DNA from: a virus | Lineage: Duplodnaviria > Caudoviricetes | Reading direction: 5' to 3' (one strand) | IMG/VR virus record: IMGVR_UViG_3300044982_000010 | Coordinates: 145 to 64,144 of that record | DNA: 64,000 nt | Shown: positions 917-64,000 of the stretch, one piece after another | Layout of the letters: the number at the start of each line of letters is the position of its first letter | How positions within the stretch are numbered: the stretch's first letter is position 1 | The notes under the pieces: generated by a model | The model's input: only the letters and a program-made list of their open reading frames with translations | Databases searched by the model: none | What the model was told of the DNA's origin: nothing | Position numbers and translations under genes: made by a program

Positions 917-955
917 TCTGGTGTGGCAGTTTTTGCTAACTCAAGGGAGTAACGA

Positions 956-1216
956 ATGAACGACAGTACGTCGCGGGACGCGCTGATTGCGCGCAACCTG
1001 CGCTGGATTGAGAGCGAGGGGCTGCATCCTCGCGTCATTGACTATGCCAAGCAATACGCCAACCTGACGCATGGCGCGCTGAAGATCATGTCCGTCTACG
1101 AGACGGCGACCGACAGCGGTGACCCAGCGCAAGTGCGCCTCGCATGGGACGCGGTGATCCGCTACCTGCGCACCCTGAAGCCTGCCTTTGAGGAGAGCGG
1201 GCGCAAGGCGGCGTAA
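956..1216 (+). CDS. Hypothetical protein
   Basis: GGGAG RBS lies within the palindrome; 86 aa ORF. Confidence 0.75.
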   Translation: MNDSTSRDALIARNLRWIESEGLHPRVIDYAKQYANLTHGALKIMSVYETATDSGDPAQVRLAWDAVIRYLRTLKPAFEESGRKAA

Positions 1217-1366
1217 CGAACGTAGTCCGTCACCACCCCCCGTGACGGGCTGCTAGGGGCGGTGAGGCAATTCGTCATACGGTGCGTGTCGCTATGCGAT
1301 CACAATCCGACATTCGCAATCCTCACCGCCCCGCCTTTTCCCTCTAACCCACGAGAGTAAATACCG

Positions 1367-2482
1367 ATGAAGCTCAACCAACTGGAAGTCCGCTTGCCTG
1401 CGATGTACTACGCTGCATTGGAGGATGGCGGGCCATCGTATCTGGTCACCTCCGATCCCGGTCGAGGCAAGACCTCGATCTTTCGAAGGTTCAAGCGCAT
1501 TATGAAGCGCATTGATCCCGCCGCTAAGTGGGGCTTCGCGCTGATCAACGGAGCGAACTTCACCCTGATGACCGGCATGGGGTTCATGGTCCCGAGCAAG
1601 GACGCCAAGGGGCGCGAAGTCAGCAAGTTCCAACTGCCGTATTGGTATCACGACTACGACGAGCCTGACAAGACGCTCGATGAGTTCGACGGCGGCATCC
1701 TGCTGATCGATGAGTACGACAAGCTGGGGCTGGACGAGAAGAAGATCGTCGGCGAAGCGGCTCTGAGCAAGATGCTGGGCAATCATCGCTTGCCGCCCGG
1801 TTGGGTGGTGATGTTTGCGGGCAATCGGCTGACCAATCGTTCCGGCTCGACGCGCGATCTCGATCATATGATCATGCGGCGTATCTCGCTGGAAGTGACC
1901 GACGATGTGGAATGCACAGTCGAATACTTTCGTTCGATCAACGTGCTGCCCGAGGTGATCCAGTTCGCGGAGGAGAACCCGCAACTGTTGTTTGAGCCGC
2001 AGCCCGAGGATCAGCGGCCTCGTTGCAGCCCGCGCACGCTGCATCAAATCGACATCCACCTGCGCTCGTTGATGAGGGCGTTCGATACGGATCAAATCCC
2101 GACCGACCCGCTGACGCAAGAAGACATCACGGGCGGGATTGGCAAGTCTGCCTGCGCGCAACTGGTGAAAACCATACGCTTGGGTCAGGAGTTGAAGCCG
2201 TACGAGGAGTACATCAACAGCCCGAAGACGGTTACTCTGCCGAGTAAGCCCGACGCCCAACGGCTCTTGTCGTACAAGATCGCCGCACGGGTGAGCGTCA
2301 AGGACGCCAAGCCTGCGCTGGAGTTCATGGCCCGCATGCCCGAGGAGCATCAAGTCATGTTCGTGCGCATGGCGATCCAACGCAACTATCAACTGGCGTT
2401 CGAGCCGCATGTGGCCGAGTGGTGCGCCAAGAAGACGGCGCTGATCGCAGTCCTCAACCGGTATAAGGCCGAGAACAAGTGA
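1367..2482 (+). CDS. MoxR-like AAA+ ATPase
   Basis: Walker A SDPGRGKT, Walker B ILLIDE, sensor AGN and a later SPR motif; near a VWA gene. Confidence 0.85.
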   Translation: MKLNQLEVRLPAMYYAALEDGGPSYLVTSDPGRGKTSIFRRFKRIMKRIDPAAKWGFALINGANFTLMTGMGFMVPSKDAKGREVSKFQLPYWYHDYDEPDKTLDEFDGGILLIDEYDKLGLDEKKIVGEAALSKMLGNHRLPPGWVVMFAGNRLTNRSGSTRDLDHMIMRRISLEVTDDVECTVEYFRSINVLPEVIQFAEENPQLLFEPQPEDQRPRCSPRTLHQIDIHLRSLMRAFDTDQIPTDPLTQEDITGGIGKSACAQLVKTIRLGQELKPYEEYINSPKTVTLPSKPDAQRLLSYKIAARVSVKDAKPALEFMARMPEEHQVMFVRMAIQRNYQLAFEPHVAEWCAKKTALIAVLNRYKAENK

Positions 2483-2892
2483 GGGTCCATCGGCGGCGTG
2501 ATGCGTCCATCGACTTCGTAAGCAAAGATGGCGTGGAGTGGCTAGCAATCAATGCAACCCGCATGAAACTGCTCCACATCCCTCACCGCTCAATGCGCCA
2601 TCGGCGCTACGAGTTAAGTGTTGAACTCACTGAAATCAAAATGAAAGGTGACAAGATGCGCTGCGTATTCGAGACAAAGCTGGCCGTCGATATCGACGTG
2701 AATGATGACAAGCTCCGGTTGGCGTTCATCGAGATGGTGACTCAGACCGCCCGCAACATGTACGGCCCGACCGTGATGCTGGCGAAGAACGCGCCAGTCA
2801 TATCGCTGAGCATGACCACGCGATCCGGCAAGCAGGACATCCCGCTGTTCCCCGAGAACGTTACTCAGGAGAGTGACGATGACGAAACGTGA
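2479..2892 (+). CDS. Hypothetical protein (true start may be 2641 or 2656)
   Basis: ORF between the AAA and VWA genes, with phage-like codon usage in its 3' part. Confidence 0.55.
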   Translation: MRVHRRRDASIDFVSKDGVEWLAINATRMKLLHIPHRSMRHRRYELSVELTEIKMKGDKMRCVFETKLAVDIDVNDDKLRLAFIEMVTQTARNMYGPTVMLAKNAPVISLSMTTRSGKQDIPLFPENVTQESDDDET

Positions 2893-3056
2893 TCGTCAAG
2901 AGTTCGCAGGCTACCTGCGCAACTGCACCGACCGGCAGGTGGCTGGCGTCTGGCAGAAAGAACGTAAGGCGAAGCGTTGGGCATACGCTCGACTGGCTGA
3001 AACCGAAGCGTTGAAGCGAGGAATTAGCCTTTCCCTCTAACCCAAGAGAGTAAACA

Positions 3057-4460
3057 ATGCCGCTCGTTCAAACTGACATCAAGTCCCCGGTCGCTGGCGA
3101 CACCGGCAGGTGGAAGAAGCTGAGCCTCGACGCGATCCGCAACCAGCTATGGGCGGAAACCAAGGCTGGCATGCTGTGGGCTGTCCCTTCCTATGCCGAT
3201 ATTTGGTTGGCGATGATGGTGGATCGCGACGGCGAGCAGGCGTGGTTCACCGACCAAGTTGAAACCGCTGCGACCGACGACAAGTTCCTCTACATCAACA
3301 TGGAGTGGTTCTTTAAGCTCACGCTCGATGAGCGACTCTTTGTGGCGTGCCACGAGATCGCGCACGCGATGTATGGGCATGCCGGTCTGTTCTACATGCT
3401 GCAACTGGCTGGCGAGATACGTTACTCAGATGGGTTAGTGCTGCCAGCCAACGGCGAGATGCTCAACGTCGCTGCCGATTATGTGATCAACGATCAATTG
3501 GTGCAAGCCAAGATTGGCAAGATGCCTTCAGGCGGTTTGCATTGGCCGGGCATGATCAACGGCGACATGGGCGTGCTGGATGCGTATCGCATCTTGTACA
3601 AGATCAACAAGAGCCGCAAGCGCCGACCGGGTAATCAACCGGGTGATCAAGAGAGTGATCAACCGGGTGGGGGCAAGGTGGACGATGCGTGCAAGCGCAC
3701 CACCAAGGACGGCATACCGCAAGGCGAGGGCAGTGGCAAAGCCTTCGACAAAGTATTAAAGCCCGGTGGCGGTTCCGGCAAGAAGCCCAACAAGGCCATG
3801 TCGGAGAGATCGCAGGCCGAGTGGGACACGGCGGTCAACGCGGCGATGGAGAGCGCCAAGCTTCAGGGCAGGTTGCCCGCCAACTTGGAGCGGCTGTTTG
3901 TCAAGCGCTTGCAACCGAAAGCGGATTGGCGCGATCTCTATCGTCTCGCAGTCTCACGTAAAGTGGGCAACGATAGATACACATGGGATCGGCTAGAGCC
4001 GCAACTGATCTATCGCGGCATCGGCGCACCGGGGCGCTCTTCGTATGGTTGCAACATCATCGTGATCGTGGTCGATACTTCTGGATCGATTGACGAGAAT
4101 ACGTTCGCGGTGTTCATGGCCGAGACGACCTCGCTGCTGGAGCAGGCCAAGCCGAAGGCCATCGTGTTCGTCCAGTGCGACACCGACATCCAAGAGTGGG
4201 TGGAGATGGATGGGGTCAGCGATCTCTACCAATGCAAGCTCAAGATGGGCGGCGGCACCAGCTTCAAAGAGCCGTTCCAACGGATCAAGGATGAAGGGCT
4301 GGAGCCTGATCTGCTGGTGTACCTCACTGATCTGTATGGTGACCAAGAAGAGATCGCGCCGCCGAGCTACCCAGTGATCTGGGGCTGCATCAACGAGCGG
4401 AAGGCGACGTGGGGCGAAACGGTGCAAGTGCCAGCACAAACGGGAGAGGGATCGATCTGA
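3057..4460 (+). CDS. Metallopeptidase (HExxH) plus VWA domain protein, DUF2201-like
   Basis: TAATD...CHEIAH...N.AADYVIN peptidase signature; MIDAS DTSGS, GGGTSF and YLTDLYG. Confidence 0.88.
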   Translation: MPLVQTDIKSPVAGDTGRWKKLSLDAIRNQLWAETKAGMLWAVPSYADIWLAMMVDRDGEQAWFTDQVETAATDDKFLYINMEWFFKLTLDERLFVACHEIAHAMYGHAGLFYMLQLAGEIRYSDGLVLPANGEMLNVAADYVINDQLVQAKIGKMPSGGLHWPGMINGDMGVLDAYRILYKINKSRKRRPGNQPGDQESDQPGGGKVDDACKRTTKDGIPQGEGSGKAFDKVLKPGGGSGKKPNKAMSERSQAEWDTAVNAAMESAKLQGRLPANLERLFVKRLQPKADWRDLYRLAVSRKVGNDRYTWDRLEPQLIYRGIGAPGRSSYGCNIIVIVVDTSGSIDENTFAVFMAETTSLLEQAKPKAIVFVQCDTDIQEWVEMDGVSDLYQCKLKMGGGTSFKEPFQRIKDEGLEPDLLVYLTDLYGDQEEIAPPSYPVIWGCINERKATWGETVQVPAQTGEGSI

Positions 4461-4560
4461 GTTAGCTAGCAAGCTCAGATTGAAGGCGGGATGGATGGCG
4501 AGTGCGAGTCCGCGGAGCGTGCAGTGACCTGTTCATCCCGCCGCTAACTCAGGAGAGTAA

Positions 4561-5361
4561 GTGATGAGTGATAAGCCTCTCTTCAAGCTATGGCCACCGA
4601 CCACAACTATCACCTACGCCGATGCTGAAACGCGCGGCAAGCTGCGGCATTGGAAGAAGAAGCTGGCTGAGCGCTACGATGCGTTCGAAGCTGAGTATGC
4701 ACGCGCGGATCGCATGAGCGTCGTTGGCGACATGGTGCGCGGCAGCACCTCCACCCGCCAGCGCGCCTACCAGAAACTAAACAAGATGTTTGGCCCCGGC
4801 GCGGTCAACGAGGGCGTTACTCTCCAGAGAAACAAGTCGCTGGCGATTTGGTCTTATCTCAAGCCGCGCAACGCCGTCACCACTAAGACCAGCGATGATC
4901 TGAGCGAGGCTGAGCGCGCTTCGTTGATGCAGGACTGCGTGACGGTGAACTATGTCATTGCGGGCGTGATTGGCGCAAGGGTTTGTGCCGCAGACGGGTT
5001 GTGGACGTTGGAGGTTCCCGACCACGCGCTAGGCCGCGCCGTCGAGCGCAGCGGCTACCTCCAGCCCGAGGTGATCATCCGCGAAGCGCACATGAACCTG
5101 TTGTCGATGCCGGTGAGCCGGGTCAACGACATCCACTACATCAAGGCTGGGCCGGGATGCTTTGCGGGCGAGCTTATTGTCTCCGACAAGGAAGCGACCT
5201 ATCGCACCTCCATCCATGTGCGAGTGAAGACGTGGCTGGACGACAACATGATGGGCGACAACCAAGTGCCGATCACTGAAGTGGGGGCGCGAGGTCAGCG
5301 CTTGGGCGACAGCATCCTGCTGCCGCGTCCACTGTGGCTGCTTACTCAACGGAGTAAATAA
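4561..5361 (+). CDS. Hypothetical protein
   Basis: 266 aa ORF; AGGAG RBS supplied by the palindrome at 4545. Confidence 0.75.
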   Translation: MMSDKPLFKLWPPTTTITYADAETRGKLRHWKKKLAERYDAFEAEYARADRMSVVGDMVRGSTSTRQRAYQKLNKMFGPGAVNEGVTLQRNKSLAIWSYLKPRNAVTTKTSDDLSEAERASLMQDCVTVNYVIAGVIGARVCAADGLWTLEVPDHALGRAVERSGYLQPEVIIREAHMNLLSMPVSRVNDIHYIKAGPGCFAGELIVSDKEATYRTSIHVRVKTWLDDNMMGDNQVPITEVGARGQRLGDSILLPRPLWLLTQRSK

Positions 5362-5977: not shown

Positions 5978-6826
5978 ATGAACACACATCTCGTGAGTTA
6001 CATCGACAAGAAGCTTGATGAGGCGGCTAACTTCGTCATCCGTTACATGCCGGTGAACATGCCGACCGACCGGATTTACGAAGACTTGGTGGGCGAGCCG
6101 CACGTGGCGGCGGCGTTCCGCGAAGCGGTCAAGTACCTGCCGCCATCGGCGCTCAACCGTCGTGCGATCCTCAAGCTGGGCGACCTGCTGCTCAACGTGT
6201 CGCTGCGGTTCGCTCCGACCGACGCCTATCCCGTGTTCCTGATGCCGAAGTATGATCTGGCGGTTACTCACGAGAGTGAGTTGGGGCAGTCGATGAGCAT
6301 GGCGATCCAAGTCACTCGCGAATGGGAGATGCTGATCAAGACGTGGGAGAAATTCAGAGAGGCCGCGCCTGATCCGCATACGCTTGGGTTCCTGTTCCCG
6401 TGGCTGCGCGAGATCATGCTCGACTTCCATGTCGGGCTGCTCGACGTGAGCATCAAGCGCAAAGCCGACCGTGAGAAGATCGAGCGCGAGGTGCGAGCGA
6501 TCCAACGGCGCTTCCCGCCCAAGAGCTTCCCACGTCTGAGCATCGAGCTTAACCGGGTATGCCAGTCGGGCAAGCGGTTGTTCGGGCAGTACCGGATGCT
6601 GGAGGCTTCAACCAAGGACACCGATCTGACCCGCGCCGCGCTCAGCATCGACCGGGTGACCAATCTAAGCCCGGCATGGTTGAACGAGCATATGGAAGAG
6701 TGCATTGCCGGTTGGTTTGAAGAGACAATGGCGATCACCCGGCAAGACGGCAGCGACATGACCGGGCGGCGGCGCAAGGCTTTCAAGGTCACCGTACCGT
6801 TCGTGACCCCACAGGAGAGAAGGTAA
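5978..6826 (+). CDS. Hypothetical protein
   Basis: 282 aa ORF; TAATG coupling to the next gene. Confidence 0.75.
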   Translation: MNTHLVSYIDKKLDEAANFVIRYMPVNMPTDRIYEDLVGEPHVAAAFREAVKYLPPSALNRRAILKLGDLLLNVSLRFAPTDAYPVFLMPKYDLAVTHESELGQSMSMAIQVTREWEMLIKTWEKFREAAPDPHTLGFLFPWLREIMLDFHVGLLDVSIKRKADREKIEREVRAIQRRFPPKSFPRLSIELNRVCQSGKRLFGQYRMLEASTKDTDLTRAALSIDRVTNLSPAWLNEHMEECIAGWFEETMAITRQDGSDMTGRRRKAFKVTVPFVTPQERR

Positions 6827-7137
6827 TGGCAGGTTTCACCTACAAGTCATACTCGTTTGTGGACAAAGACCCGATGATTGATCAGGTGCGGACAATCATT
6901 CTGGACAGCCACGACACTTATAAGCAAATAGCGGAGGCGAGTGGTGTCACCGAAGGCACCATACGCAATTGGCTGGACGGCGCAACGAAGAAACCGCAAG
7001 CCGCCACCTTCAACGCCGTGCTGCGAGCGTTGGGCTACAAACTTACTATCCGCCAGCTTGCTGAAGCTGAGACAGTCGCGCCAACTATCAGCATGCGTCA
7101 CGTGGTGCAGATGGCTAAATATCGGAAGCGCAAGTAA
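6826..7137 (+). CDS. XRE-family HTH protein
   Basis: YKQIAEASGVTEGTIRNWLDGATKKPQAATFNAVLRALG. Confidence 0.85.
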   Translation: MAGFTYKSYSFVDKDPMIDQVRTIILDSHDTYKQIAEASGVTEGTIRNWLDGATKKPQAATFNAVLRALGYKLTIRQLAEAETVAPTISMRHVVQMAKYRKRK

Positions 7138-7317
7138 CTCGGGAAAGTAAACAATGAGCGTGAACAATAAACGATCATACCCGTGTATTGAAGCACGCTT
7201 GAAGGAACTTGGCTACCTAGCGCGTGAACGCCAAAGGATCATCCACCGTGCGGCGAAGGGTTCTCCTAAGCATATCGAGTGGATCAGGCGCATGTATGTG
7301 CAACGCCATTGGAGAGC

Positions 7318-7917: not shown

Positions 7918-8208
7918 ATGTTAAGAGTACAACGTAAGGCATGCGCCACCTGCGTCTACCGCGACGATAGCCCTATCAACGTGGCGGCGTTGGAGGCGCG
8001 CGTGCGCGATCCCTGTGGTGATTTCACCACATATCGTGTCTGCCATCACTCCGAGAATGCGTGCTGCCGTGGCTTCTGGAACCGGCATAAGTGGAAGTTC
8101 CCGCTTGGGCAGATTGCTCAGCGCCTGAAGATGGTCGAGTACGTGGACGACCACGAGGTCACTCAGGTGAGTAAGGATGTGGCCAAGATGTTCAAGGACA
8201 AGACATGA
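7918..8208 (+). CDS. Small Cys-rich protein
   Basis: CATC...CHH...CCRG putative metal-binding pattern. Confidence 0.65.
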   Translation: MLRVQRKACATCVYRDDSPINVAALEARVRDPCGDFTTYRVCHHSENACCRGFWNRHKWKFPLGQIAQRLKMVEYVDDHEVTQVSKDVAKMFKDKT

Positions 8209-8928: not shown

Positions 8929-9333
8929 ATGAGCAGCAACATCCCAGAGTATCATTCGTGGCAGATGATGAAGAACCGTTGCCTTAACCCCAATGCTGTA
9001 GACTATGCCTATTATGGCGGGCGCGGGGTTACGATTGATCCGCGTTGGCATTACTTCATGTTCTTCTTTGCCGACATGGGGCGACGACCAACACCTAAGC
9101 ATACGCTTGAACGTAAGAACAATGCGCTTGGTTACTCAGCGAGTAACTGTTGTTGGGCGACACGAGAGACGCAAGCTCGTAACCGACCATACAATACACT
9201 CGATATGGCGCTCGCTAATCAGATACGGGCGCTCTACGCTACGGGGCAATATCGGCAGGTTGATCTTGCCCGCCAGTTTGGCTGCACGCAAGTGCTTATC
9301 TCTCAGGTCGTACGTCGCCTCATCTGGCGATAG
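8929..9333 (+). CDS. HNH-type homing endonuclease with C-terminal HTH
   Basis: YHSWQMMKNRC...YGGRGV...W...TLERKNN..GY...NCCWAT...Q..N. Confidence 0.85.
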   Translation: MSSNIPEYHSWQMMKNRCLNPNAVDYAYYGGRGVTIDPRWHYFMFFFADMGRRPTPKHTLERKNNALGYSASNCCWATRETQARNRPYNTLDMALANQIRALYATGQYRQVDLARQFGCTQVLISQVVRRLIWR

Positions 9334-9347: not shown

Positions 9348-11238
9348 ATGTTACGCATATTCTTGGATTTTCGAAACGTTCTACGAGAACAAGACCTACA
9401 CGCTCAAGTCTTTATCGCCGGTAGAGTACATCCTCCACCCGCGCTGGGAAACGCTGGGCTGCGGCGTGGCCATCGAGCATGAGCCTGCCTTCCTCCTGCC
9501 GAAGGACGACGTGGCTCCGTTCCTGCGCGGGATCAAGCAACCGTATGCGGCGATCACGCACAACGCTTTGTTCGACGCCTGCATACTGGCGTTCCGCTAC
9601 GGCATACATCCCGCCGCCCTGCTTTGCACGCTCAGCATGGCGCGGGCGACGATCTGGCACAGCACGCCCAACGGCAGGTTGAGCCTCAAGGAGTTGCTTA
9701 AGTTTCTAGAGCTACCGCAGAAGGCCGACTTCATCCAGCAAATGTCGGGCAAGCATTACGCCGACCTAGAGAAAGACCCCGGCTTGCTGATGGGCTGGAC
9801 CGGCTACACCCTCAATGACGTGGAGGGATGTAGAGAAATCTTTTTCCGCCTGCGCAAGGACTTTCCGGGGCAGGAAGCGCTGGTGATGGATCGGGTGATC
9901 CGCATGGCGACTCAGCCGGTGCTGCATGTGAACATGGTGGTGTTGGACGACTACCGCGACATCGTGCGGCAGCGCAAGCGGGACTTACTCTCGCGGATAA
10001 GTCTGACCGATCCGGGGCAGCTTAGGTCGGACGAGAAGTTCGCCCAGTTGCTACTTCAGTATGGTGTTGACCCGCCAATGAAGACCAGCCCAACCAATTC
10101 GAGCAAGAAGATTTACGCCTTCGCCAAGACTGACTACGCGTTCACTGATCTGCTGGAGTACGAGGACGTTGAGGTGCAGGCGCTGGTGGCGGCGCGCTTA
10201 GGCGTCAAGACGACCATCGAGGAAACACGATCTACCCGGTTGATCAACATTGGGCTATGCACCAACAGCTTCCTCAAGGAACCTCTCCTGCCGGTCCCGC
10301 TCAAGTACGGCGGCGCGCACACGCATCGCTACTCGGGCGACTGGTTGCTCAACCTACAGAACCTGTCGGCGCGCAAGAGCAAGGAGATACGCACGGCGAT
10401 TGAAGCGCCGCCCGGCTACACCATCGTCGCTGTGGACGCGGCGCAGATTGAGGCGCGCATCGTGGCGTGGCTGGCAGGGGAAGAGGTTTTGCTGGAGATG
10501 TTCCGGCTGGGGCGGGACACCTACAAGGCGTTCGCCGCCATCATTTTCTCCACCCTGCTTACTCAGGTGAGTAAAGCTCAAAGATTTGTTGGCAAGACCT
10601 GCATCTTGGGGCTGGGCTTTGGCATGAGTGCCATCAAGCTGTGGCGCACCATCACCAACCTCGCGCGCGAGCAGGGGATCGAGATCGAGATCACACTGGA
10701 GAACTGCACCGAGTGGGTGGTGACCTATAGGTCTACGTATGTCGCCATCTGGCGCTGCTGGCAGGACATGGGCAACCTGATCCACGCCATCGTCAACGGC
10801 TATGGCGACGGCTGGGGTGTGGGGCCGTGCCATGTTGAAGGCACAACTATCATTTTGCCGAGCGGCCTGAAGCTATTCTACGACAATTTGCGCATGGAGG
10901 ACGGCGAGTACTGGTATGACCAAGCGCAGTTCCGGCGCAAGCTTTACGGCGCGAAGATGCTGGAGAACGTGGTGCAGGCGCTCGACCGGCAGCATGTGGT
11001 TGAAGCCGGGCTGCGCACCGAGGCCCGCGCACGGGAGCTAGGGATCGACGGCAGGGTGCTGCTCAACGTTCACGACGAAAACGTCCACTGCGTGCCTGAC
11101 GAGCAGGCGTACGTGCTGGCTGAGATCGCGCTAGAGGAGATGCGGCGCAACGAGCCGTGGTGCGCCACCCTCCCTCTTGCCGCCGAGGTGAAGCTGGGTA
11201 GGAACTTTGGCGAGATGGAAGAATGGAAGCCCTCATAG
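9348..11238 (+). CDS. polA: Family A DNA polymerase with a +1 frame break at 9368-9371
   Basis: ExoII HNALFD, motif A DAAQIEAR, motif B RFVGKTCILGLGFG, motif C NVHDE. The ExoI motif LDFET is restored only by joining ATG 9348 to the frame of ORF 9466. Confidence 0.9.
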
Positions 11239-11335: not shown

Positions 11336-11656
11336 ATGCAAATGGTGAACTTCATCACAGAGGAACCGGACATCGAAGTTCCCGCCGACATGCAGACTTT
11401 GATGCAGGTCTTTGGGCTGGCTCCGATGGAGGCGCGGTTCATGCAGAGCATGCTGGTGCGGGGCTGGTCTGGCAAGGAGGAGCTACCCGAGGTGAGCTTC
11501 AGCATCCGGCAGCAAATTTACAAGCTTCGCAAGAAGCTGGAACCCCGACGAGTTTGGATCATCAATGATGCCTCTGGACGATACTCCATTCCCCCGAGCA
11601 GCAAGCGAGTGGTGCGGCAGATTATTGAAGCGGCTCTCGCCAACTCAGGAGAGTAA
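11336..11656 (+). CDS. Winged-helix DNA-binding protein (resembles OmpR C-terminus)
   Basis: FGLAPMEARFM...IRQQIYKLRKKL...IIN...GRYSI. Confidence 0.65.
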   Translation: MQMVNFITEEPDIEVPADMQTLMQVFGLAPMEARFMQSMLVRGWSGKEELPEVSFSIRQQIYKLRKKLEPRRVWIINDASGRYSIPPSSKRVVRQIIEAALANSGE

Positions 11657-11657: not shown

Positions 11658-12119
11658 ATGGCTGATGCCCACAAGCAAATGCTGAGCGTGCTGGGTTTGG
11701 AAGACTCGATCCTGCGCGGCGGCGTGGGCGCTGCCCCTGACATGTGGAAAATGATCAACGCGTCAGAAGACGCCATGCGAGCGCAGCTAGCGCAATCGAC
11801 AGAGCAGGCTGCGATGGTAGGCATGCAGGCGCAGAACTTTCCGCCCAACGTATCCCCGATTGGCCAGTTTCCAACCAACGGGAATGCAACTCAAGCATCG
11901 CTAGCGCCTCGCGCTCGCGAGATGTTCCTCAAGCGCATGGGCGGCATTCGTAACGAGTTGCGGATCGCTCCTGATGATTTCTTACAGTGTCATATTTATG
12001 GCGAGGTGGTGCATCTGTTCTATTGCTTTGGTGGTCGAGCGGGCGTTACTCAAGAGAGTATCGATCTGTTTCCCAGCGACACCCTGATCACGCAGTTCAG
12101 GATGGTTCTCTCCACATGA
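11658..12119 (+). CDS. Hypothetical protein
   Basis: ATG directly after the AGGAG-containing palindrome at 11641. Confidence 0.7.
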   Translation: MADAHKQMLSVLGLEDSILRGGVGAAPDMWKMINASEDAMRAQLAQSTEQAAMVGMQAQNFPPNVSPIGQFPTNGNATQASLAPRAREMFLKRMGGIRNELRIAPDDFLQCHIYGEVVHLFYCFGGRAGVTQESIDLFPSDTLITQFRMVLST

Positions 12120-13386: not shown

Positions 13387-13622
13387 TTAAGGCGACTGTG
13401 GTTACTCAAGAGGGTAAGTTGAGCCTGCTGGTGATAGGGCTGAGCTTCGGCAATTTGAACAAGTTCCTTAAGCAGCCGGGCGACACATACATCAAGATCA
13501 ACGGCAAGGAGATCAACGTCGATTTCGATGTGCTGCTGTTCTCTGGTCGAACCGAGGCCGAGATGGAAACGATGATGAAGCAGTTTATCGGCCCCAACAC
13601 CAAAGTGAAGGATACGCGATGA
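13377..13622 (+). CDS. Hypothetical protein (start 13377 or 13383)
   Basis: Coupled ORF in operon. Confidence 0.65.
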   Translation: MAMIKATVVTQEGKLSLLVIGLSFGNLNKFLKQPGDTYIKINGKEINVDFDVLLFSGRTEAEMETMMKQFIGPNTKVKDTR

Positions 13623-52086: not shown

Positions 52087-52099
52087 TTACTCAACCGAG

Positions 52100-53089: not shown

Positions 53090-53416
53090 TCAACCCTCTT
53101 GAGTAGCTTTTCCTGAAATTCCCGGCACTTTCTTGCCCGCGTGACCCTTGCCGAACATCTCGCTCGACCCGCCGCCATCGGCCATCCGCACGCCCTCGGT
53201 GTAGGCTTCCTTCTCGGGGCCGATCCGATCCGCCACTACGCCGTCCGCGCCGCCGTTGGAACTCTTCCCCGACACGCCGCTTTCAGCTTCGTGCGCGGTG
53301 CCTTTGCCGAACATCTTGGTCGATCCGCCTTTGGCAAAGAAGTCAGGCTTCTCCGACCGGCTCATTTCTTTGGGCATCTCTCTGTCTCCTAGATCGAGTT
53401 CTAGTTGCTTACTCAC
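53090..53416 (-). CDS. Small Gly/Lys-rich protein with FAKGG and MFGKG repeats
   Basis: Coupled ORF; internal duplication MFGKG...SGK. Confidence 0.65.
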   Translation of the reverse strand: MSKQLELDLGDREMPKEMSRSEKPDFFAKGGSTKMFGKGTAHEAESGVSGKSSNGGADGVVADRIGPEKEAYTEGVRMADGGGSSEMFGKGHAGKKVPGISGKATQEG

Positions 53417-53607
53417 GAGAGTTTGCTCTCGTTGCCTCCGCGCGCCTTAGCCGCTCGCGGTTTGGCGTCAGGCCCGCCAATCCCTTTGGCGTCACGCTTG
53501 TCACGCACCACTGGCACGTCCTTGGGCATCTTGTCCACCCCGCCATGCTTAAGCGGCTTTGAGCTTAAGTTCTGAGTCGAGGTGAACGGACGCGCCTTAG
53601 CCATCAC
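53413..53607 (-). CDS. Small basic protein
   Basis: Coupled ORF; LKHGG and KARGG. Confidence 0.55.
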   Translation of the reverse strand: MMAKARPFTSTQNLSSKPLKHGGVDKMPKDVPVVRDKRDAKGIGGPDAKPRAAKARGGNESKLS

Positions 53608-54414: not shown

Positions 54415-56948
54415 TGTGGCCCTCCTCCTATCGGCGCACCGCCGCCGTAGTTCGGATTGACTGTATTTGTTCTTGGTCCTTGATCGCGGTTTACGCCCAT
54501 CGGGCCTTGCGGCTGACCGGGCGGCGGTTGGGGGGGTCCGCCGCCACCCGGCGCACCGCCCGGTGGACGGCCAGCTTGCGGTGAGCCGGGCTGTCCACCT
54601 TGTGCAGGCGGTCCATTCGGCCCCATTGCATGGCCGACCATGCCCTGCTGCTCGGCCATCGCTTGGGCCTGCTTTTCCTTCTGATCCATCTCTTGCTCGG
54701 AAGGAACGATATTCTCGCCCGGCAGACCGATCTCGGTGGCGACGTTTCTCAAGACTTGGGCGCGGCCCTTCGGCCCAATGATCTGCATGTCAATCGGGTT
54801 AGCGGTCAACTGGAGGAACTCAAGCTGACGGGCGCGTTGCGTCTCACGTTGCTGAGCCACTGCCACGCCCAGCACCCTGATCTTCTCTTCGCCCGTCAGC
54901 AAGCCGTCCGTGTCGGTCAGCATCACCATATCCAGAAGCCCGTTCAACACCCCATCGATGACATCCCTATCGATGTTCGACGCCACCGTCTGGAGTATCT
55001 TGGACGAGTTCTGCATCAGCATCGACAGCCCGCTCGCCGTGCGGCCTAAGCCACCGGCAGGCGGGTTGCCGGTCATGAACTTCGGGATCGCTGAGTGTTC
55101 ATCAGCCAGACCAGAGAACGCCATATAGACTTGAAGAAGCTCCTGAGAGTTCGACGCCGGGGAGAAAAACTCGACGGCTTTCTCGGTGTTGTTCCCGAAC
55201 GGATCAGATTTGACATGCCAGCGCTTCCACGGGTACATGGCTTCGCCGTCCTCGCCATCCGAGAGACGGTCGTCGTTGATCACCGCTTGTGGGCCAGAAG
55301 AGATCGAGAGGTTATTGACCAGCGCCCTCAAGGTGGCGTTCATCACACTGGCGATATCGCTCAGCAGATCGGGAAGCCCGTTCCCACATGGATTGCCCGG
55401 CACCTTCTCGAAAGAAGTCAGATAGTAATTGTGACGCTTACGCGGAGAAAGCGCTAGCTGGACCTTGATAATGTGCCTGCCAATAAGCCACGCGTTGATG
55501 AAATAGTCTCTAAGCGGATCGGGTATGCTGGCGGGGTCCATGCCGATCTCCAAAAGGTATCGGCCTTGGCAATTCCCTTGGAACTCTAAGCATGCGATAA
55601 GACCACTCTGGTTGAACCTTGGGTCTTCACGACTTTCAAGAATGGCGCGCTCAGCATCCGTTTGGTCCCAGTTATCGACCAAACCGCCTCGACCATATTC
55701 GTCAAGGACCGCTCGCACCTCATCGGTGTTGAAGCCCGGCAGGTCCAAGAGGTCGTTAATTTCAGATCGAGTAAGACGCGAGCGCTGGATGATGTTGGCA
55801 TCGGCTATGTCCGATACGCCGGGGGTCCAATAAATGTCGAATGGCGATACCCGCTCCCAGCATAGCATCGGCATGTCCACAACTTGTGGCTTAGCGATCT
55901 GCGGTTGTTTGGGAGGGTTACTCGCCTGAGTAAGTGGGCCACCCATCGGCCCCTGAGTGGAAGGCGCACTGGGGCCGGGCAACGCCTGTTGCGGTTGCCC
56001 CGACCACGGCGCTTGATCTTTCGACCATTTGACTTGGGTCTTGATGCGGACGGTCGGGCCTTTGATACACGCATACGGAAAAAGCGGAAGGTCCACCAAG
56101 AACTCTGCTAGTGCAGTGTAGAAACCCCCTTGAGCAAGATGTTCCTGTAGTTTGTCCTCCGCGATCTTTGCTTGTTGCACCGCCTTGCGCTTAGCTTGTT
56201 CTTTGGCATCCTCCATCATCGCATCGTAGACATCTCTGACTGCGGAGGGATCGGGTAGAGGTGGAGGCGGGGGAGGGGGAGGCAGGCCCGCACCGGGACC
56301 GGGAGGCGCAGGTATGCCCGGAGGTATAGCCCCAGCATGTGCGCCCTGAGACGGCCCCGACGCGTGCGAGGGTATACTGGCGTCAATGAAACTTGGATGT
56401 ATACCGGCTTGCTGTCCATAGGCATGCGCCGCCGCCGTTCCGATCTGGTGCGCCGCTTGGGCTTGGGCTGCTTGGAAGTGCGCTTGTACCGCTTGTTGCA
56501 CAGTCTCTGAGATGTGCTGACCAATCGCCTGAATGATCTCAGGCGGCACTTCCGGGTCGCTGCTCGGCTCAATCCCCCACGGGCGATCGGTGCCTAGGTA
56601 GACATCTCGCAGTAGGGAACTTGTTCCCCTACACTTCATCGCGATGGTGCGGGCGTACACGTTCGAGCCGCCGAAGCGCTTGATCTCTTCGATCACGTTC
56701 GACTCGTACACCCCGTCGAACGCTCTTAACGCAGCGAGCAACCGATCCGACCAGCCACGACCGACAGTATCGCGGTGTCGTCGCATCAGCGTATATTGAT
56801 CAGTGACGAAACCGGCGAGGCCCTGCGGGGGTGCGCTCTCAGGTGGCGCGTACGCCTGTGCGCGTGCCGCGTCCATCACTTGTTGAGCCTGCGCTGTGCC
56901 GTCCCGCCCTACGACGCGCAAAGCCGGTGCGCCCGGCAGCGCCGCCAT
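54411..56948 (-). CDS. Portal protein
   Basis: ERVSPFDIYW, G.GLPDLL.D...NA..RALVNN.S..SGPQ, RTASGLSML; likely start MAALPG. Confidence 0.85.
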   Translation of the reverse strand: MAALPGAPALRVVGRDGTAQAQQVMDAARAQAYAPPESAPPQGLAGFVTDQYTLMRRHRDTVGRGWSDRLLAALRAFDGVYESNVIEEIKRFGGSNVYARTIAMKCRGTSSLLRDVYLGTDRPWGIEPSSDPEVPPEIIQAIGQHISETVQQAVQAHFQAAQAQAAHQIGTAAAHAYGQQAGIHPSFIDASIPSHASGPSQGAHAGAIPPGIPAPPGPGAGLPPPPPPPPLPDPSAVRDVYDAMMEDAKEQAKRKAVQQAKIAEDKLQEHLAQGGFYTALAEFLVDLPLFPYACIKGPTVRIKTQVKWSKDQAPWSGQPQQALPGPSAPSTQGPMGGPLTQASNPPKQPQIAKPQVVDMPMLCWERVSPFDIYWTPGVSDIADANIIQRSRLTRSEINDLLDLPGFNTDEVRAVLDEYGRGGLVDNWDQTDAERAILESREDPRFNQSGLIACLEFQGNCQGRYLLEIGMDPASIPDPLRDYFINAWLIGRHIIKVQLALSPRKRHNYYLTSFEKVPGNPCGNGLPDLLSDIASVMNATLRALVNNLSISSGPQAVINDDRLSDGEDGEAMYPWKRWHVKSDPFGNNTEKAVEFFSPASNSQELLQVYMAFSGLADEHSAIPKFMTGNPPAGGLGRTASGLSMLMQNSSKILQTVASNIDRDVIDGVLNGLLDMVMLTDTDGLLTGEEKIRVLGVAVAQQRETQRARQLEFLQLTANPIDMQIIGPKGRAQVLRNVATEIGLPGENIVPSEQEMDQKEKQAQAMAEQQGMVGHAMGPNGPPAQGGQPGSPQAGRPPGGAPGGGGPPQPPPGQPQGPMGVNRDQGPRTNTVNPNYGGGAPIGGGPQ

Positions 56949-57032: not shown

Positions 57033-57566
57033 ATGTTTAATTTGACAGCGGACGACGAGCAACGGCTGCGCGCACTCGCTGCCGGATTAGCCAAGGATAT
57101 GGAAGACACCGACAAGCTGCTGGAGCGACTCGGGTTTACACGCGAAGACTACAACGAACTGGCGGAAACCCGCGCGTTCAAGACTGTCCTCAATCAAGCC
57201 CTGAGCGAATGGGAGGGCGCGAGCAACACGCATAAAAGAATACGCCTGAAAGCAGCGACCAACATCGAGCAGGCTCTCCCCCATTTTTTCCACGCCATGA
57301 CCGACGACAAAGAGCCGTTAAGCTCGCGGGTGAAAGCGTTCGAGATCGTCGCCCGCGTCGGCAACCTCGGCAACCCGGACGTGATCCCACCGGGCGGGGG
57401 CCAGTTCTTCAAGCTGGAGATCAACCTCGGCGGCGGTCGCGCGCCACTGGTGTTCGACAACGTGACGGACACACTGACGGATATTGAATCGGGGGTCGAG
57501 ACTTACTCACCTGAGTTACCCCAGATCAGCCGGGCATGGACCGGCAGGGAGAGGGAGCCGCTATGA
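57033..57566 (+). CDS. Hypothetical protein, possibly terminase small subunit-like
   Basis: Helical N-terminus and C-terminal F.LEINLG strand; lies between TerL and portal but on the opposite strand. Confidence 0.5.
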   Translation: MFNLTADDEQRLRALAAGLAKDMEDTDKLLERLGFTREDYNELAETRAFKTVLNQALSEWEGASNTHKRIRLKAATNIEQALPHFFHAMTDDKEPLSSRVKAFEIVARVGNLGNPDVIPPGGGQFFKLEINLGGGRAPLVFDNVTDTLTDIESGVETYSPELPQISRAWTGREREPL

Positions 57567-59850: not shown

Positions 59851-60120
59851 GAGGCTAGGATGCTTTGGAGTGACTTACTCACATGAGTTTGAAGACTTGA
59901 GGGCGGGTTCGGCTTTACTGTATTTACTTGGTGAATACTTGTCAAGTCGGTCTTCTGGCTACGATATATCGTAAACTCATATCGATGGGTGGTATTCATA
60001 TTGTACAGTGGGGGAGTGTGCGATGTTCCCTGACCCAATATTTTGTGCGTTCACCTAAACGCGCCCACCCCGGTGCCACCCCCCGGTCCAGATGGGGTGG
60101 CCACCCCCTGCTTCCCCCCA

Positions 60121-60478
60121 GAGTAGGCTACGAGGTGGAAACACGTAAAGCCGCAGTATCCGGCGAAACCTCGGAGACGACCCCTCCACGGGCAGGGTTC
60201 GCGGCGCTAGTGCGCTAAGTCGGTGCGTCCGACGAATGTCACTCAGGGGAGTTAGAAAACGGTGGAGCGCCACCCCTGAAACAACAATGATCTACGCCCA
60301 TGCCTTGTCCAACGATAAGCTGAGAATGGTGCAAATTCCCACGGTAAGCGGATGATGACAAACAAGGCATGACGATGGAAGTGACCAGCCCCGATTAGTT
60401 AGCGAGGGCGGATCGTGAGACATCGTGAAGAGTAACTGTGAGGCGGCGCGGCTTAACCGCGCCGCCTTCAGTTGTTCT
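60121..60478 (+). ncRNA. Candidate structured non-coding RNA
   Basis: Nested stems, a GAAA tetraloop and a closing GC hairpin; no convincing ORF. Confidence 0.35.
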
Positions 60479-60528
60479 TCCAAGCTAACTCACGTGAGTT
60501 AGTTTCGAGGAACAACTGGAGAAAGCTC

Positions 60529-60768: not shown

Positions 60769-61113
60769 ACGACGCGCCCAATCGTGAACAGGAAGAGTTG
60801 GAGCGCTACGACGCGCTTCAACGCTGGCTTGACGCGCAAATTGCGCGCTGAACACCGGCATGAGGGTGATTTCTGTAAATCTCCCTCATTCCAGTATTCA
60901 GTTAAGGCATAATTTCGGGTTATGAGAACCCGGCAGGGAAAAGTGTCAGTTATCACTGAGACTTAGCACATATGAGTGTGTAATTCATTATTCATATATA
61001 TATATAAAGACCCTAGGCAAAATTTTTTGCTTATGGGCCTACGGCATGGGGCGCGTAACTCACGCGAGTAACCTCCCTAGAGCTTTCATTGCGCTGGCGA
61101 TAATGAATTAGCG

Positions 61114-61442: not shown

Positions 61443-61605
61443 GGTGGGCGGACTTCGGTTCGTTAAGATCGGACGCCTCACCTTCATGTGGTGCGTGTCG
61501 CGCAGGTACTCGCAAGCTCGCAGCAAACCTCTCCATGCCGGATCGCGGCGGCGCACCCAGCGCGCACAACCCGTGCAACCTCTCTTGTTGACGGGACTCA
61601 GGTGA
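61411..61605 (+). CDS. Small basic early protein
   Basis: GGAG RBS; ISYRKVGGLRFVKIGRL. Confidence 0.55.
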   Translation: MMTMLNISYRKVGGLRFVKIGRLTFMWCVSRRYSQARSKPLHAGSRRRTQRAQPVQPLLLTGLR

Positions 61606-61699
61606 GTAAGCTCGACGCCCTTCTCATCATCGCGCTCGTGGTGTTCTGCATCATGCCATGCGGCGCTGTTCTCCTCGATGCACTGGGAGTTCTACCGTA

Positions 61700-61975: not shown

Positions 61976-62133
61976 TACTGAGCGCGCTCACACACCACAG
62001 GAGGTTGCCATGCAACCCGCGCACTAAACATGCGCGCGACAGCAAGAGCGTAACTCAGCATTGATAGCGTCCACGTCGGCACGAGCAGTCGAATGGGCGC
62101 TATCAGTAGTGAGTTAACTCAGGAGAGTAAGAT

Positions 62134-62450: not shown

Positions 62451-62479
62451 TTGACATGCGCTATCAGGCGTGCCATCAT
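62451..62479 (+). promoter_or_regulatory. Possible promoter
   Basis: TTGACA-17 bp-CATCAT. Confidence 0.5.
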
Positions 62480-62564
62480 TAACCCTTTCACTGCCGGTCT
62501 ACAAGACCAGTATGGATCACTGGTGACGAGTGTTTACAGTCACAGAAAGCACGAGGTATTGGAT

Positions 62565-63566
62565 ATGGCGCGTAAGGCATTGAATACCGGCAACGAGGTT
62601 GACGAGGCCGAAATTGTCACTGAGAACCCCGAGGCGGTCGTGGATCAGGAGTGGAACGCTGCCGATCCGGACGCGGCGGCGGTCGAACACGAGAGCGAAG
62701 TCACTCAGGAGAGTGAGGTGACTAACCCCGCTCCGACTGAGCAGGAGATCGCGGATCAGGAAGCCGCAGGCGTGAACGTCGATGCGGCCGACGCCAAGCG
62801 CACCACGGCTCGCCAGAAGAAGGCGCTGCTGAAGAAGATCGGTGACATTGGCGAGGCGTACGGCGCTGGTAAAACGTCGATGATCGAACTCGCTCAAGAA
62901 GTGACCGAGGCGGCCGTCAACAAGACCGTGGGCGAGAGCGATGCCGAGGACTTATACAAGACCTTCAAGGCTCGCGCCGACAAGCGCTCCACCATTGCCG
63001 CCGAGAATGGCGGCGTCGTGGTACCTGACGAGGTGGCCGTGATCGGCTCGCTCGATCAGCAGGTCAGCAAGGTGCGGACGTTCATCAAGCTGGGCAACAC
63101 CTTCGATGACGGCGTCGATATCGTTGAGCGCGCCATCGCCGTTCACCTCGCGGCCAAGGCGGCGGCGAGCAATCCCAAGGCGGTGATGTCGGGATCGACC
63201 TACACCGTGATCGGCTCCATCGCCACCGAGCAACTCAAGGATAAGTGGGGCGGCGCGGCGATGAGCAACGCGCAAATGCACGAGCATATCGCTCGCAGCG
63301 TCACCGAGCAGGGTCCGCCGACAGGGGCGGACAAGGTGCGGCAGGCGCTCGACAGCGCGATCAGCGCACGCAAGGGCGCAAGCTCGCAGAAGTCGCATCG
63401 TCCTCCGGTCGAGAGCCAGCACTTGGACGACGCCATCGACGCGCTCTATCGGGCGCTGGGTGACGCCTCGCCAGCGGCTCAGGCGGCGTTCGACAAGGAG
63501 CAGGAAGACGCCAAGGCAAAAGCTGAGGCGGCGGAAGCGCGGAAGGCCAGCAAGAAGGCCGCGTAA
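62565..63566 (+). CDS. Hypothetical protein with acidic N-terminus and KAA-type basic tail; own transcription unit
   Basis: GAGG RBS before ATG 62565, with a promoter upstream and a terminator downstream. Confidence 0.8.
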   Translation: MARKALNTGNEVDEAEIVTENPEAVVDQEWNAADPDAAAVEHESEVTQESEVTNPAPTEQEIADQEAAGVNVDAADAKRTTARQKKALLKKIGDIGEAYGAGKTSMIELAQEVTEAAVNKTVGESDAEDLYKTFKARADKRSTIAAENGGVVVPDEVAVIGSLDQQVSKVRTFIKLGNTFDDGVDIVERAIAVHLAAKAAASNPKAVMSGSTYTVIGSIATEQLKDKWGGAAMSNAQMHEHIARSVTEQGPPTGADKVRQALDSAISARKGASSQKSHRPPVESQHLDDAIDALYRALGDASPAAQAAFDKEQEDAKAKAEAAEARKASKKAA

Positions 63567-63628
63567 CAACTTACTCGCAAGGGTAAAGAGTAACTCCGCG
63601 CTGCTCTCCCCAGACAGCGCGGGGCTTG

Positions 63629-63665
63629 CGCCGTCGCTTGGTTAATTCTAGGCGGCGGCGTTTTT
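63629..63665 (+). terminator. Intrinsic terminator
   Basis: CGCCGTCGCTTGG / CTAGGCGGCGGCG stem followed by TTTTT. Confidence 0.75.
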
Positions 63666-64000
63666 GTGAGCGCAACTATCAACAAAGCTTCGCGTGCGCA
63701 CAGGCTCTTCGCAGTGGGTCACCGCGCCAACCCCTAGCCATGGAGTGGGACTGTCATGTTACCCGTGCGGCGGTGAGCGCCGCCCCCGTACACTCGGCCC
63801 TCATAGCGGCCACATCTCACCAGCCGCAGTCCTCTCCTAAATCATCACGGTTCACTCGCTAGACCAGTGTCCTGCACTGTGATGCGTTTGCAACCATATC
63901 CAGCCATCTAGGGGCGGATGAAACGCCCCACACCTTTCACTCAAGCGAGTAACCCTGCCATGAAAGCCATCCTCTTCTCTGCCGTCCTATGCGCAGCTAC

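Follow-up and report, generated by a model that had tools for sequence, protein, structure and literature searches.

The 64,000 nucleotides of viral DNA analysed here (the window; positions 145-64144 of the 64,144-bp IMG/VR virus record IMGVR_UViG_3300044982_000010, its phage labelled G000) carry a lattice of the short palindrome TTACTC-N4-GAGTAA. This lattice is real, strongly selected, evenly spaced and family-wide, and it exists in lineage-specific versions. We put the probability at roughly one half that the palindromes are sites in duplex DNA at which a protein with a flexible link would read two half-sites.

Exact copies of the palindrome number 12, against 0.00 expected from 100 dinucleotide shuffles, and at up to two mismatches there are 66 sites, for which the same shuffles gave a mean of 0.86 (standard deviation 0.93, maximum 5). 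Forty-four of these sites deviate at no more than one position and 22/66 at two, and three additional sites combine the arms with a 3-base spacer. Unpaired arms are at or below expectation (5 left and 8 right against about 9.7 each), which identifies the pair as the functional unit. A reading made earlier from the letters alone (the sequence-only reading) had listed about 65 copies between 937 and 63952, with conserved, AT-rich half-sites in a GC-rich genome, a variable spacer and no gap above about 2.8 kb. Our counts bear this description out (the GC content of G000 is 55-63%, the arms are AT-rich and conserved and the spacer sequence is free), except that a weak site at 275 had been missed, so that the sites range from 275 to 63952. 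The coefficient of variation of the 65 gaps is 0.65 against 0.98 for random placement, a value not reached in any of 10,000 simulations, and the largest gap between neighbours is 2553 bp where the null mean is 4541 (P=0.0007); the regularity that the sequence-only reading had suggested testing is therefore present. Even spacing is likewise seen in two related genomes, G002 and G007, and in the cultured Rhizobium phage RHph_TM3_14A, and in a third relative, G004, only at up to two mismatches. Moreover, the giant genes of 6.5-6.8 kb are filled with sites every 0.6-2.1 kb. A preference for gene junctions would cluster the sites and hence does not account for their spread.

Selection on the sites is visible within genes. 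When synonymous codons were shuffled within each gene, keeping proteins and codon usage (200 shuffles), 10, 27 and 39 intragenic sites at up to 0, 1 and 2 mismatches stood against shuffle means of 0.03, 0.72 and 3.9 and maxima of 1, 3 and 10, so that the enrichment over a codon-preserving null anticipated by the sequence-only reading was obtained. We also compared codon use at aligned identical amino acids. Codons lying in the arms are the same in G000 and G002 in 81/103 cases against 59% elsewhere (Fisher 3e-5), in G003 in 69/87 against 58% (Fisher 4e-5) and in G008 in 13/18 against 47% (Fisher 0.055). Relatives with other arms or other spacing show no such excess (G004 22/47, G006 14/34, G007 7/22), which serves as an internal control for selection tied to the motif. 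Purifying selection thus acts at the DNA level and follows the palindrome.

By our own rough calls of open reading frames (ORFs), crude enough for some boundaries to be shifted by one class, 34 of the 66 sites lie well inside genes, 15 end 0-6 nucleotides (nt) before a called start, and 17 fall at gene ends or in non-coding DNA. At junctions the usual form is the TAA stop of the upstream gene, CTC, a Shine-Dalgarno-like spacer, GAGTAA, a few bases and the start codon. Intragenic sites mostly occupy the frame xTT ACT CNN NNG AGT AAx, and the frame that reads TAA is used only with mutated arms or at gene ends. The spacer alone is orientation-biased in G000, owing to coding and Shine-Dalgarno needs; on the sense strand it is purine-rich (AGGA, AAGA) in G000 and G002. 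Two pairs of sites at gene junctions overlap by 3 bases (13-bp offset, shared TAA; 15616-15644 and 16413-16441), an arrangement that G002 repeats at 10922/10935.

The lattice extends through a large family. A capsid profile search found at least 503 relatives in IMG/VR, and the G000 motif recurs in three uncultivated virus genomes (UViGs) whose primases are about 70% identical, where stretches of 32.8, 65.9 and 48.7 kb hold 48, 67 and 49 sites. The sequence-only reading had proposed looking for the same or a different dispersed palindrome in related phages, and both exist. RHph_TM3_14A lacks the G000 motif (3 matches vs 2 for the control) and carries TTACCT-N4-AGGTAA, usually flanked g...c, in 13 exact copies, 36 allowing one mismatch and 43 allowing two; G000 has no copy of it. 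Scanning the best 80 loci de novo, with mismatches tolerated, revealed the classes TTACTC-N4, TTACTC-N3, TTACCC-N3, TAACTC-N3, TCACTA-N4, TTACCT-N4, TTACCT-N3, ATCACTC-N2, a GTCAYA type and a CGTTACG type, where shuffled G000 and host DNA yield only GC-rich noise of 4-7. G013 and G015 seemed empty in the capsid region, but whole-genome scans gave 40 and 30 degenerate sites, and the family therefore offers no true lattice-negative control. On trees of four proteins (major capsid protein, MCP; portal; large terminase subunit, TerL; a protein resembling the small terminase subunit, TerS-like) each class arose once, with 7 changes for 8 classes among 20 taxa. Among more distant podophages, no dispersed palindrome appeared in the scan of Roseobacter phage CRP-212. 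In the first 50 kb of Aeromonas phage vB_AsaP_MQM1 (L178) we noted 13-14 copies of a different palindrome, built on AACGGACAC and its complement.

Mapping the intragenic sites of G000 through protein alignments revealed that positions are kept while arms change. A site stands at the same position in G002 for 27/34 mapped sites (background 3.6%), and in genomes of the TTACCC class a site of that class occupies the G000 position in 13/24 cases in G004 and 11/18 in G006 (background 5-6%; binomial 1e-11 and 8e-10). The position is kept in 3/16 cases in RHph_TM3_14A, 4/17 in G007, 3/14 in G008 and 2/19 in G005. The site at 2232 forms a series, from the G000 form through a half-switched site in G004 to a fully switched one in G006, and orthologous sites also shift between N4 and N3 across lineages. 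Since most position-conserved sites align without indels, they were remade by substitution, which points to a trans-acting reader with changed specificity and argues against insertion of a mobile repeat. In relatives, non-coding arrays repeat a fully symmetric 16-mer every 21 bp, with ACGT as its self-complementary spacer. In G001, positions 26874-26981 (L014) hold three tandem 21-bp repeats, each with a perfect 16-bp palindrome, in the tail of a tiny ORF (ALTHVSN x3); G002 has two sites at the corresponding position (28500-28554; L010) and G000 has none.

In the host DNA compared, the motif does not behave as a host motif, in agreement with the phage-wide system that the sequence-only reading had envisaged. 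In the 642,517-bp replicon p42f of Rhizobium etli CFN42 we found 0 matches of either motif at up to one mismatch, compared with 36 in the 60.9-kb RHph_TM3_14A.

Variation among the sites within genomes bears on what is recognised. Across seven genomes, 589 arm pairs deviate from the consensus; 307 of them are unpairable, G.T pairs would form in 134 on the sense strand and in 128 on the antisense strand, and compensation is seen in 20. Compensatory changes, none of which the sequence-only reading had noticed, are thus few, and this within-genome variation points to recognition of the DNA sequence rather than of an RNA hairpin. Pairing does not extend into the flanks in G000 (15/47 vs 26% by chance), and a comparison with Rfam gave no family at the gathering score. 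Sites with two mismatches are genuine members of the set all the same. The deviations that break pairing, the lack of a wobble bias, the intragenic half of the sites and the Rfam result are our reasons for preferring duplex DNA to a hairpin or RNA element, and the same pairing counts set the lattice apart from a conserved RNA hairpin.

On the preferred reading, the palindromes would be cis-acting recognition sites on the double-stranded DNA of the phage, and a trans-acting, lineage-specific protein, presumably encoded by the phage itself, would read two inverted 6-bp half-sites while tolerating a spacer of 3-5 bp. Selection would maintain one site per kilobase or so genome-wide, and the sites would settle at least-cost positions, namely stop/Shine-Dalgarno junctions and a single reading frame within genes. 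The lattice might then mark the phage's own DNA for a process that acts along the entire molecule; replication, packaging, protection and compaction are examples. A genome-wide function is suggested by the even coverage, by the large number of sites within genes and by the absence from R. etli p42f, and control of individual promoters fits poorly as a role.

Several observations weigh against this reading. Spacers of 3, 4 and 5 bases coexist within genomes: at up to one mismatch G000 has 44 N4 and 3 N3 sites, G008 36 N4, 9 N3 and 4 N5, G007 45 N3 and 10 N4, G004 51 N3 and 16 N4, and RHph_TM3_14A 36 N4 and 16 N3. Such a mixture is not expected of a rigid duplex-bound dimer, and a stem-loop would tolerate it. 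The dimeric protein of the sequence-only reading therefore survives in part: broken pairing and the absence of wobble bias speak for it over an RNA hairpin, but a classical rigid dimer does not suit the mixed spacers. Moreover, the sites ending just before a start often carry a Shine-Dalgarno-like spacer, and part of the set may act in RNA too; junction sites may additionally affect translation. The host comparison covers one replicon of the host species of a cultured relative.

The search for a reader also counts against the duplex-DNA reading so far. Pfam and PHROGs were applied to about 60 ORFs, and Pfam to 45 ORF translations. They predicted two regulators, an HTH_3 (Cro/CI-type) protein at 6826-7137 and a winged-helix protein at 7279-7794. 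The sequence-only reading had looked to a helix-turn-helix (HTH) gene that would co-vary with the palindrome, and neither gene proved to do so; both are rejected as the reader. The recognition helix of the HTH_3 protein varies within one motif class, and the gene is also present in unrelated phages without a lattice. The winged-helix protein at first appears better suited: its C-terminal domain is modelled as a winged helix (predicted local distance difference test, pLDDT, about 90), all top Foldseek rows are winged-helix repressors, albeit with weak E-values of 0.04-0.2, and its recognition helix is conserved in TTACTC genomes, including the distant G007, and different in TTACCC genomes. However, its profile finds only 2/30 further family records, the protein was not seen in RHph_TM3_14A, and 27/33 viral contigs that encode it show no lattice, one of them with a helix identical to that of G000; the 10 non-lattice contigs compared by gene content have almost nothing else in common with G000. 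As the gene is sparse in the family and common in contigs without a lattice, its correlation with motif class is probably phylogenetic. The HTH_3 and winged-helix cassette (6826-7794) occurs in 10/10 unrelated viral contigs examined, at identities of 46-60% and 29-49%, and looks like a mobile regulatory module.

Other candidates fared no better. The protein at 5978-6826 (282 aa, found only in the phage family of G000) has the top share of class-discriminating columns, yet no function could be assigned to it: it has no Pfam, PHROG or PDB sequence match and no Atlas lead, and its AlphaFold2 (AF2) model (pLDDT 83.5) has no clear PDB fold match (Foldseek E >0.8; VIA-align Z <=4.8). A small class-discriminating protein at 51537-51815 was dropped because it is absent from G007 and RHph_TM3_14A. 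An N4-like virion RNA polymerase with hairpin promoters has no PDB or Pfam support in the 2269-aa virion protein. The number of class changes also counts against the reading in that it takes its minimum of 7 on the MCP, portal, TerL and TerS-like trees alike; the comparison thus has no discriminating power, and no structural-module protein stands out. The core candidates that remain, none of them singled out, are the primase-helicase, the TerS-like protein and the products of 16465-17637, 15934-16428 and 13894-14268. Pfam detected no ParB-type (ParBc) domain in the 45 ORFs, many structural-arm proteins having been scanned with PHROGs only or not at all.

A bolder extension, which we regard as tentative and rather doubtful, is that the lattice could be a self-identity code read by a lineage-specific core protein of replication or packaging, such as the DUF927 primase-helicase or a small-terminase-like protein. 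The machinery would then replicate, package or spare from a phage nuclease only DNA bearing its own marks, and the code would diversify among co-occurring relatives and so block mutual exploitation. Uptake sequences and Chi would thereby have a counterpart encoded by a virus, which the phage itself writes and rewrites.

The main rival, in our view unlikely, is that a phage replication protein reads a stem-loop formed in single-stranded DNA, which might, for instance, serve the primase-helicase as a loading or priming signal. Palindromic arms would make it usable on both strands, and the spacing is close to the length of Okazaki fragments. The primase of RSF1010, RepB', with its hairpin single-strand initiation (ssi) sites is a precedent for stem-loop priming. 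Spacers of three lengths and free sequence in one genome and the even spacing of about 1 kb, with no gap beyond 2.5 kb, are what such a signal would allow. The primase-helicase is a core gene, found in 7/9 relatives compared including RHph_TM3_14A (incomplete contigs make up the remainder), and diverges more quickly than the polymerase (52% vs 66% identity to G004); among solved structures it matches only one chain, deposited under the name 'Pathogenicity island protein' (E 4e-6). Furthermore, sites flank the AT-rich stretch of the control region, and relatives have arrays of perfect sites beside a matching stretch. However, 435/589 deviating pairs are unpaired on the sense strand, few are compensated, and wobble pairs show no strand bias. 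The two mismatches carried by 22/66 sites leave 4-5 pairs of an AT-rich 6-bp stem, and for exact sites the folding energy as RNA is only about -5 kcal/mol. In addition, the C-terminal region of the primase-helicase is very different in G000 and G007 despite the same arms.

It is improbable that the palindromes work in mRNA, with a hairpin at junctions that sequesters the Shine-Dalgarno sequence and so couples translation or places it under an RNA-binding protein, the intragenic copies being by-products. Sites just before starts make up 15/66 in G000 and a similar share (15-25%) in six relatives, sense spacers are purine-rich, the left arm often begins with the TAA stop of the upstream gene, and in the TTACCT class the right arm and spacer read GGAGGTAA ahead of ATG. 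Against this, the 34 sites deep in genes show conservation of both position and synonymous codons and fill the giant genes, G.U on the sense strand is not preferred (134 vs 128), the self-complementary ACGT spacer of the non-coding arrays would be meaningless as a loop, the loops of the TTACCC class are AT-rich rather than Shine-Dalgarno-like, and Rfam offers no family.

We also give little credence to silencing of the stoperator kind, in which a repressor would bind all sites and block transcription in a carrier or lysogenic state, the variants being immunity types. Motifs of Cluster A phages likewise vary with the repressor between subclusters (PMC6550527, in the portions covered), as the motif varies by lineage here, several classes are represented among contigs that carry the same metagenome number in their record names, and two predicted regulators are encoded at 6826-7794. 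However, scanning revealed neither an integrase nor a partition gene among the proteins covered, neither regulator follows the lattice, and the roadblock model needs neither the intragenic half of the sites nor their even spacing; the symmetry of the G000 sites also departs from stoperators, which are asymmetric and act one way relative to transcription (PMC6550527, in the portions covered).

A nucleoid or regulatory protein of the host is a very improbable reader: no phage reader was found and the relatives, spanning 42-63% GC, probably have several hosts that the variants could mirror, but the 642 kb of R. etli DNA hold no site and the capsids of G000 and G006 are 92% identical with different motifs. 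Least credible of all is a selfish or mutational REP-like mini-palindrome spreading by insertion or slippage without a phage function. The three tandem 21-bp copies of G001, at a position with two sites in G002 and none in G000, would suit it, as would some sites that coincide with indels between relatives. However, most sites align without indels and arise by substitution, they are spaced more evenly than at random, synonymous positions show conservation only in genomes that share the motif, and the scanned proteins yielded no transposase-like domain.

The sites lie in a genome of two arms (Table 1). The plus strand, up to about 21.6 kb, encodes replication genes (ATPase, vWA-type protein, DNA polymerase, PD-(D/E)XK nuclease, helicase and a 983-aa primase-helicase with DUF927), and the minus strand, 21.7-59.6 kb, encodes lysis and virion genes (tail fibres, capsid, portal, terminase), among them two giant internal proteins of 2269 aa and 2179 aa. 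A largely non-coding control region follows at 59.6-62.4 kb. The 64,144-bp source record ends in terminal repeats, and site 63937 is thus the repeat copy of the site at record position 41. We infer, as a possibility only, that the AT-rich stretch at 60950-61010 is a replication origin.

Table 1. Sites of the palindrome in the window, with the AT-rich stretch of the control region; mismatches are counted against TTACTC-N4-GAGTAA.
Positions	Match	Location and remarks
275..290	2 mismatches	within ORF 120-368; weak
937..952	1 mismatch	3 nt ahead of ORF 956 start
1345..1360	2 mismatches	6 nt ahead of ATPase gene start 1367
2232..2247	exact	within ATPase gene; position kept in G002, G008, G004, G006 (G006 arms switched)
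2861..2876	1 mismatch	close to end of ORF 2479-2892
3038..3053	2 mismatches	3 nt ahead of gene 3057 start
3422..3437	2 mismatches	within gene 3057-4460; position kept in RHph_TM3_14A with the arms of that phage
4545..4560	1 mismatch	directly adjoins ORF 4561 start; spacer AGGA
4817..4832	1 mismatch	within ORF 4561-5361
5342..5357	exact	4 nt ahead of ORF 5362 start
6264..6279	1 mismatch	within ORF 5978-6826
7135..7150	2 mismatches	at end of ORF 6826-7137
8159..8174	1 mismatch	within ORF 7918-8208
9132..9146	exact arms, 3-base spacer	
9985..10000	2 mismatches	within DNA polymerase gene
10559..10574	exact	within DNA polymerase gene; position kept in G002, G004, G006
11641..11656	2 mismatches	gene junction (stop and Shine-Dalgarno)
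12046..12061	1 mismatch	within ORF 11625-12119
12900..12915	1 mismatch	within PD-(D/E)XK nuclease gene; position kept in G002, G007, G004, RHph_TM3_14A
13402..13417	1 mismatch	within ORF 13377-13622
14945..14960	2 mismatches	within helicase gene; position kept in G002, G004, G006
15294..15309	1 mismatch	within helicase gene
15616..15631	1 mismatch	gene end; 3-base overlap with next site
15629..15644	1 mismatch	second member of overlapping pair (13-bp offset)
16413..16428	2 mismatches	gene end; first member of overlapping pair
16426..16441	2 mismatches	second member of overlapping pair
17084..17099	1 mismatch	within ORF 16465-17637
17635..17650	1 mismatch	at end of ORF 16465-17637
18414..18429	1 mismatch	within primase-helicase gene
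19481..19496	2 mismatches	within primase-helicase gene
20229..20244	2 mismatches	within primase-helicase gene; weak
20648..20663	1 mismatch	stop and Shine-Dalgarno junction, 2 nt ahead of start 20666
21171..21186	2 mismatches	between called ORFs
21421..21436	1 mismatch	3 nt ahead of start 21440
23902..23917	2 mismatches	within ORF 23851-24111
24117..24132	1 mismatch	5 nt ahead of start of minus-strand ORF ending 24111
25152..25167	2 mismatches (symmetric TAACTC..GAGTTA)	gene end
26013..26028	1 mismatch	within 2269-aa gene
27620..27635	1 mismatch	within 2269-aa gene
28729..28744	exact	within 2269-aa gene
30612..30627	exact	within 2269-aa gene
31206..31221	exact	within 2269-aa gene
32245..32260	exact	2 nt ahead of 2269-aa gene start
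33603..33618	exact	within 2179-aa gene
34948..34963	exact	within 2179-aa gene; own-class N3 site at same position in G004 and G006
36705..36720	1 mismatch	within 2179-aa gene
38827..38842	1 mismatch	5 nt ahead of 2179-aa gene start
40150..40165	exact	5 nt ahead of gene 38840-40144 start
41425..41440	1 mismatch	within internal virion protein gene
43330..43345	exact	gene junction 43314/43320
45125..45140	2 mismatches	within gene 45040-46977
46073..46087	exact arms, 3-base spacer	
47678..47693	1 mismatch	between called ORFs
48999..49014	1 mismatch	2 nt ahead of ORF 48601-48996 start
50332..50347	1 mismatch	within gene 50110-51285; occupied in 6/7 relatives, each with own arms and spacer
51474..51488	1 mismatch, 3-base spacer	
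52087..52102	1 mismatch	directly adjoins start of ORF 51808-52086
53409..53424	2 mismatches	gene junction
55918..55933	exact	within portal gene
57503..57518	1 mismatch	within ORF 57033-57566
59875..59890	2 mismatches	non-coding, 25 bp beyond -35 of sigma-70-like promoter (minus strand, 59850-59822)
60239..60254	2 mismatches	non-coding control region
60486..60501	symmetric variant	spacer ACGT; core of 18-bp perfect palindrome 60485-60502
60950..61010		AT-rich stretch between sites 60486 and 61056
61056..61071	1 mismatch	non-coding, immediately right of AT-rich stretch
61594..61609	2 mismatches	non-coding, right behind TTGACG hexamer
62115..62130	1 mismatch	3 nt ahead of start 62134; spacer AGGA
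62701..62716	2 mismatches (symmetric TCACTC..GAGTGA)	within ORF 62451-63566
63571..63586	1 mismatch	right after stop of ORF 62451-63566
63937..63952	1 mismatch	in terminal repeat (= record position 41-56)

Some further features of the window were noted in passing. The minus strand at 59850-59822 matches the sigma-70 consensus perfectly (TTGACA, 17 bases, TATAAT; 12/12) and faces the terminase gene. Near-identical leaders, a C/T-rich run followed by a TAACCC variant of the site, precede the ATPase and vWA-type genes (1335-1360 and 3028-3053). A PEP-CTERM protein (Pfam PF07589) is encoded on the minus strand at 21707-22372 and has copies 87-89% identical in the unrelated viral contigs L137, L150 and L145; the gene looks like a shared moron and a hint of common hosts among these phages. 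The 134-aa ORF at 8929-9333, with weak HTH_7 matches and the look of a homing endonuclease, is found among the relatives only in G005 and partly in G006.

The nearest cultured phages are the Rhizobium phages RHph_TM3_14A, TM27A, TM27B and TM29 (capsid identity 66.5%), and megablast of 20 kb of the window against a phage collection gave no near-identical cultured phage. Parts of the G000 sequence occur as contigs in two soil metagenomes, and no RNA dataset was among the holders. A literature search found no paper naming RHph_TM3_14A, TM27A or TM29. As these cultured phages carry their own version of the lattice, the reader and a phenotype are open to a search at the bench, and at least eight lineage-specific versions in the relatives examined, together with switching in place, even spacing, selection at synonymous positions and the large number of capsid relatives, turn a curiosity into a testable system. 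Should the marks restrict replication, packaging or protection from a nuclease to a phage's own DNA, this would establish a new principle by which viruses recognise themselves and related phages compete, and the versions would provide a compact set of orthogonal protein-DNA pairs.

Dispersed palindromes are known from several other systems. ParB-parS, Noc-NBS, SlmA-SBS and MatP-matS rely on dispersed palindromes of 12-16 bp with a fixed centre that are read by a DNA-organising dimer, whereas the centre of the G000 sites is free, 3-5 bp long, and their density is far higher. The sequence-only reading had pointed out a likeness to parS in the perfect palindrome at 60485-60502; this palindrome is present and has the central TCACGTGA in common with the parS consensus, but the likeness does not carry further: ACGT is the spacer of 1/66 sites only, spacers differ in length, and the proteins scanned showed no ParB domain. 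The conserved inverted repeats of the temperate Streptomyces phage phiC31 are palindromic repressor sites at many intergenic positions, about 18 in number and linked to early promoters. A Chi-like hotspot should abound in the host chromosome, and the 642 kb of the cultured relative's host replicon hold none. Repetitive extragenic palindromic (REP) elements are extragenic and come with a cognate HUH transposase (RAYT); half of the G000 sites are intragenic, and no Y1 transposase domain was seen in the part of the proteins scanned. Start-associated sequences of Cluster K phages are asymmetric and confined to starts, unlike the lattice, with 34/66 sites intragenic and only 15/66 just before a start. 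They are described as a conserved motif immediately upstream of some start codons (PMC3203893, in the portions covered).

The closest precedents, by analogy, are the stoperators of Cluster A and the palindromes of Cluster O. Stoperators of phages such as L5 and Bxb1 are repressor sites, up to about 30 genome-wide, that are tied to the immunity repressor of temperate phages (PMC6550527, in the portions covered), and in the part of PMC9283540 covered a monomeric repressor recognises an asymmetric sequence. They resemble the G000 lattice in their many genome-wide sites and in a motif that differs between related lineages. They differ in that the G000 sites are symmetric and half intragenic, with no repressor or lysogeny module tied to them among the proteins scanned. 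A literature search for dispersed inverted repeats in phages returned the paper on Cluster O as its sole relevant match. According to the portions of that paper covered (PMC4351075), mycobacteriophage Corndog and its relatives carry a 17-bp palindrome, TGTTCGG-N3-CCGAACA, in 34 copies in about 70 kb, of which 14 are intergenic, 10 start-proximal and 10 intragenic; the repeats mostly keep their positions in related phages and are absent from host genomes, and in 2015 the authors suggested a dimeric DNA-binding protein, doubted a transcriptional role and left the function unexplained. The same portions hold neither lineage variants nor a test of spacing. Both systems thus combine a short inverted repeat with a free spacer in tens of copies genome-wide, between and within genes, at positions kept in relatives. 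However, in the portions covered the Cluster O repeat has invariant arms and a spacer of fixed length, whereas the arms of G000 are degenerate and its spacer length varies. With an unrelated sequence, an actinobacterial host and another virion type, the likeness is one of kind and not of descent. Dispersed phage palindromes as a kind were therefore already known; what the G000 family adds, at about twice the density of Cluster O, is the demonstrated even spacing, the switching of the motif in place between related lineages and the breadth of the family that carries it.

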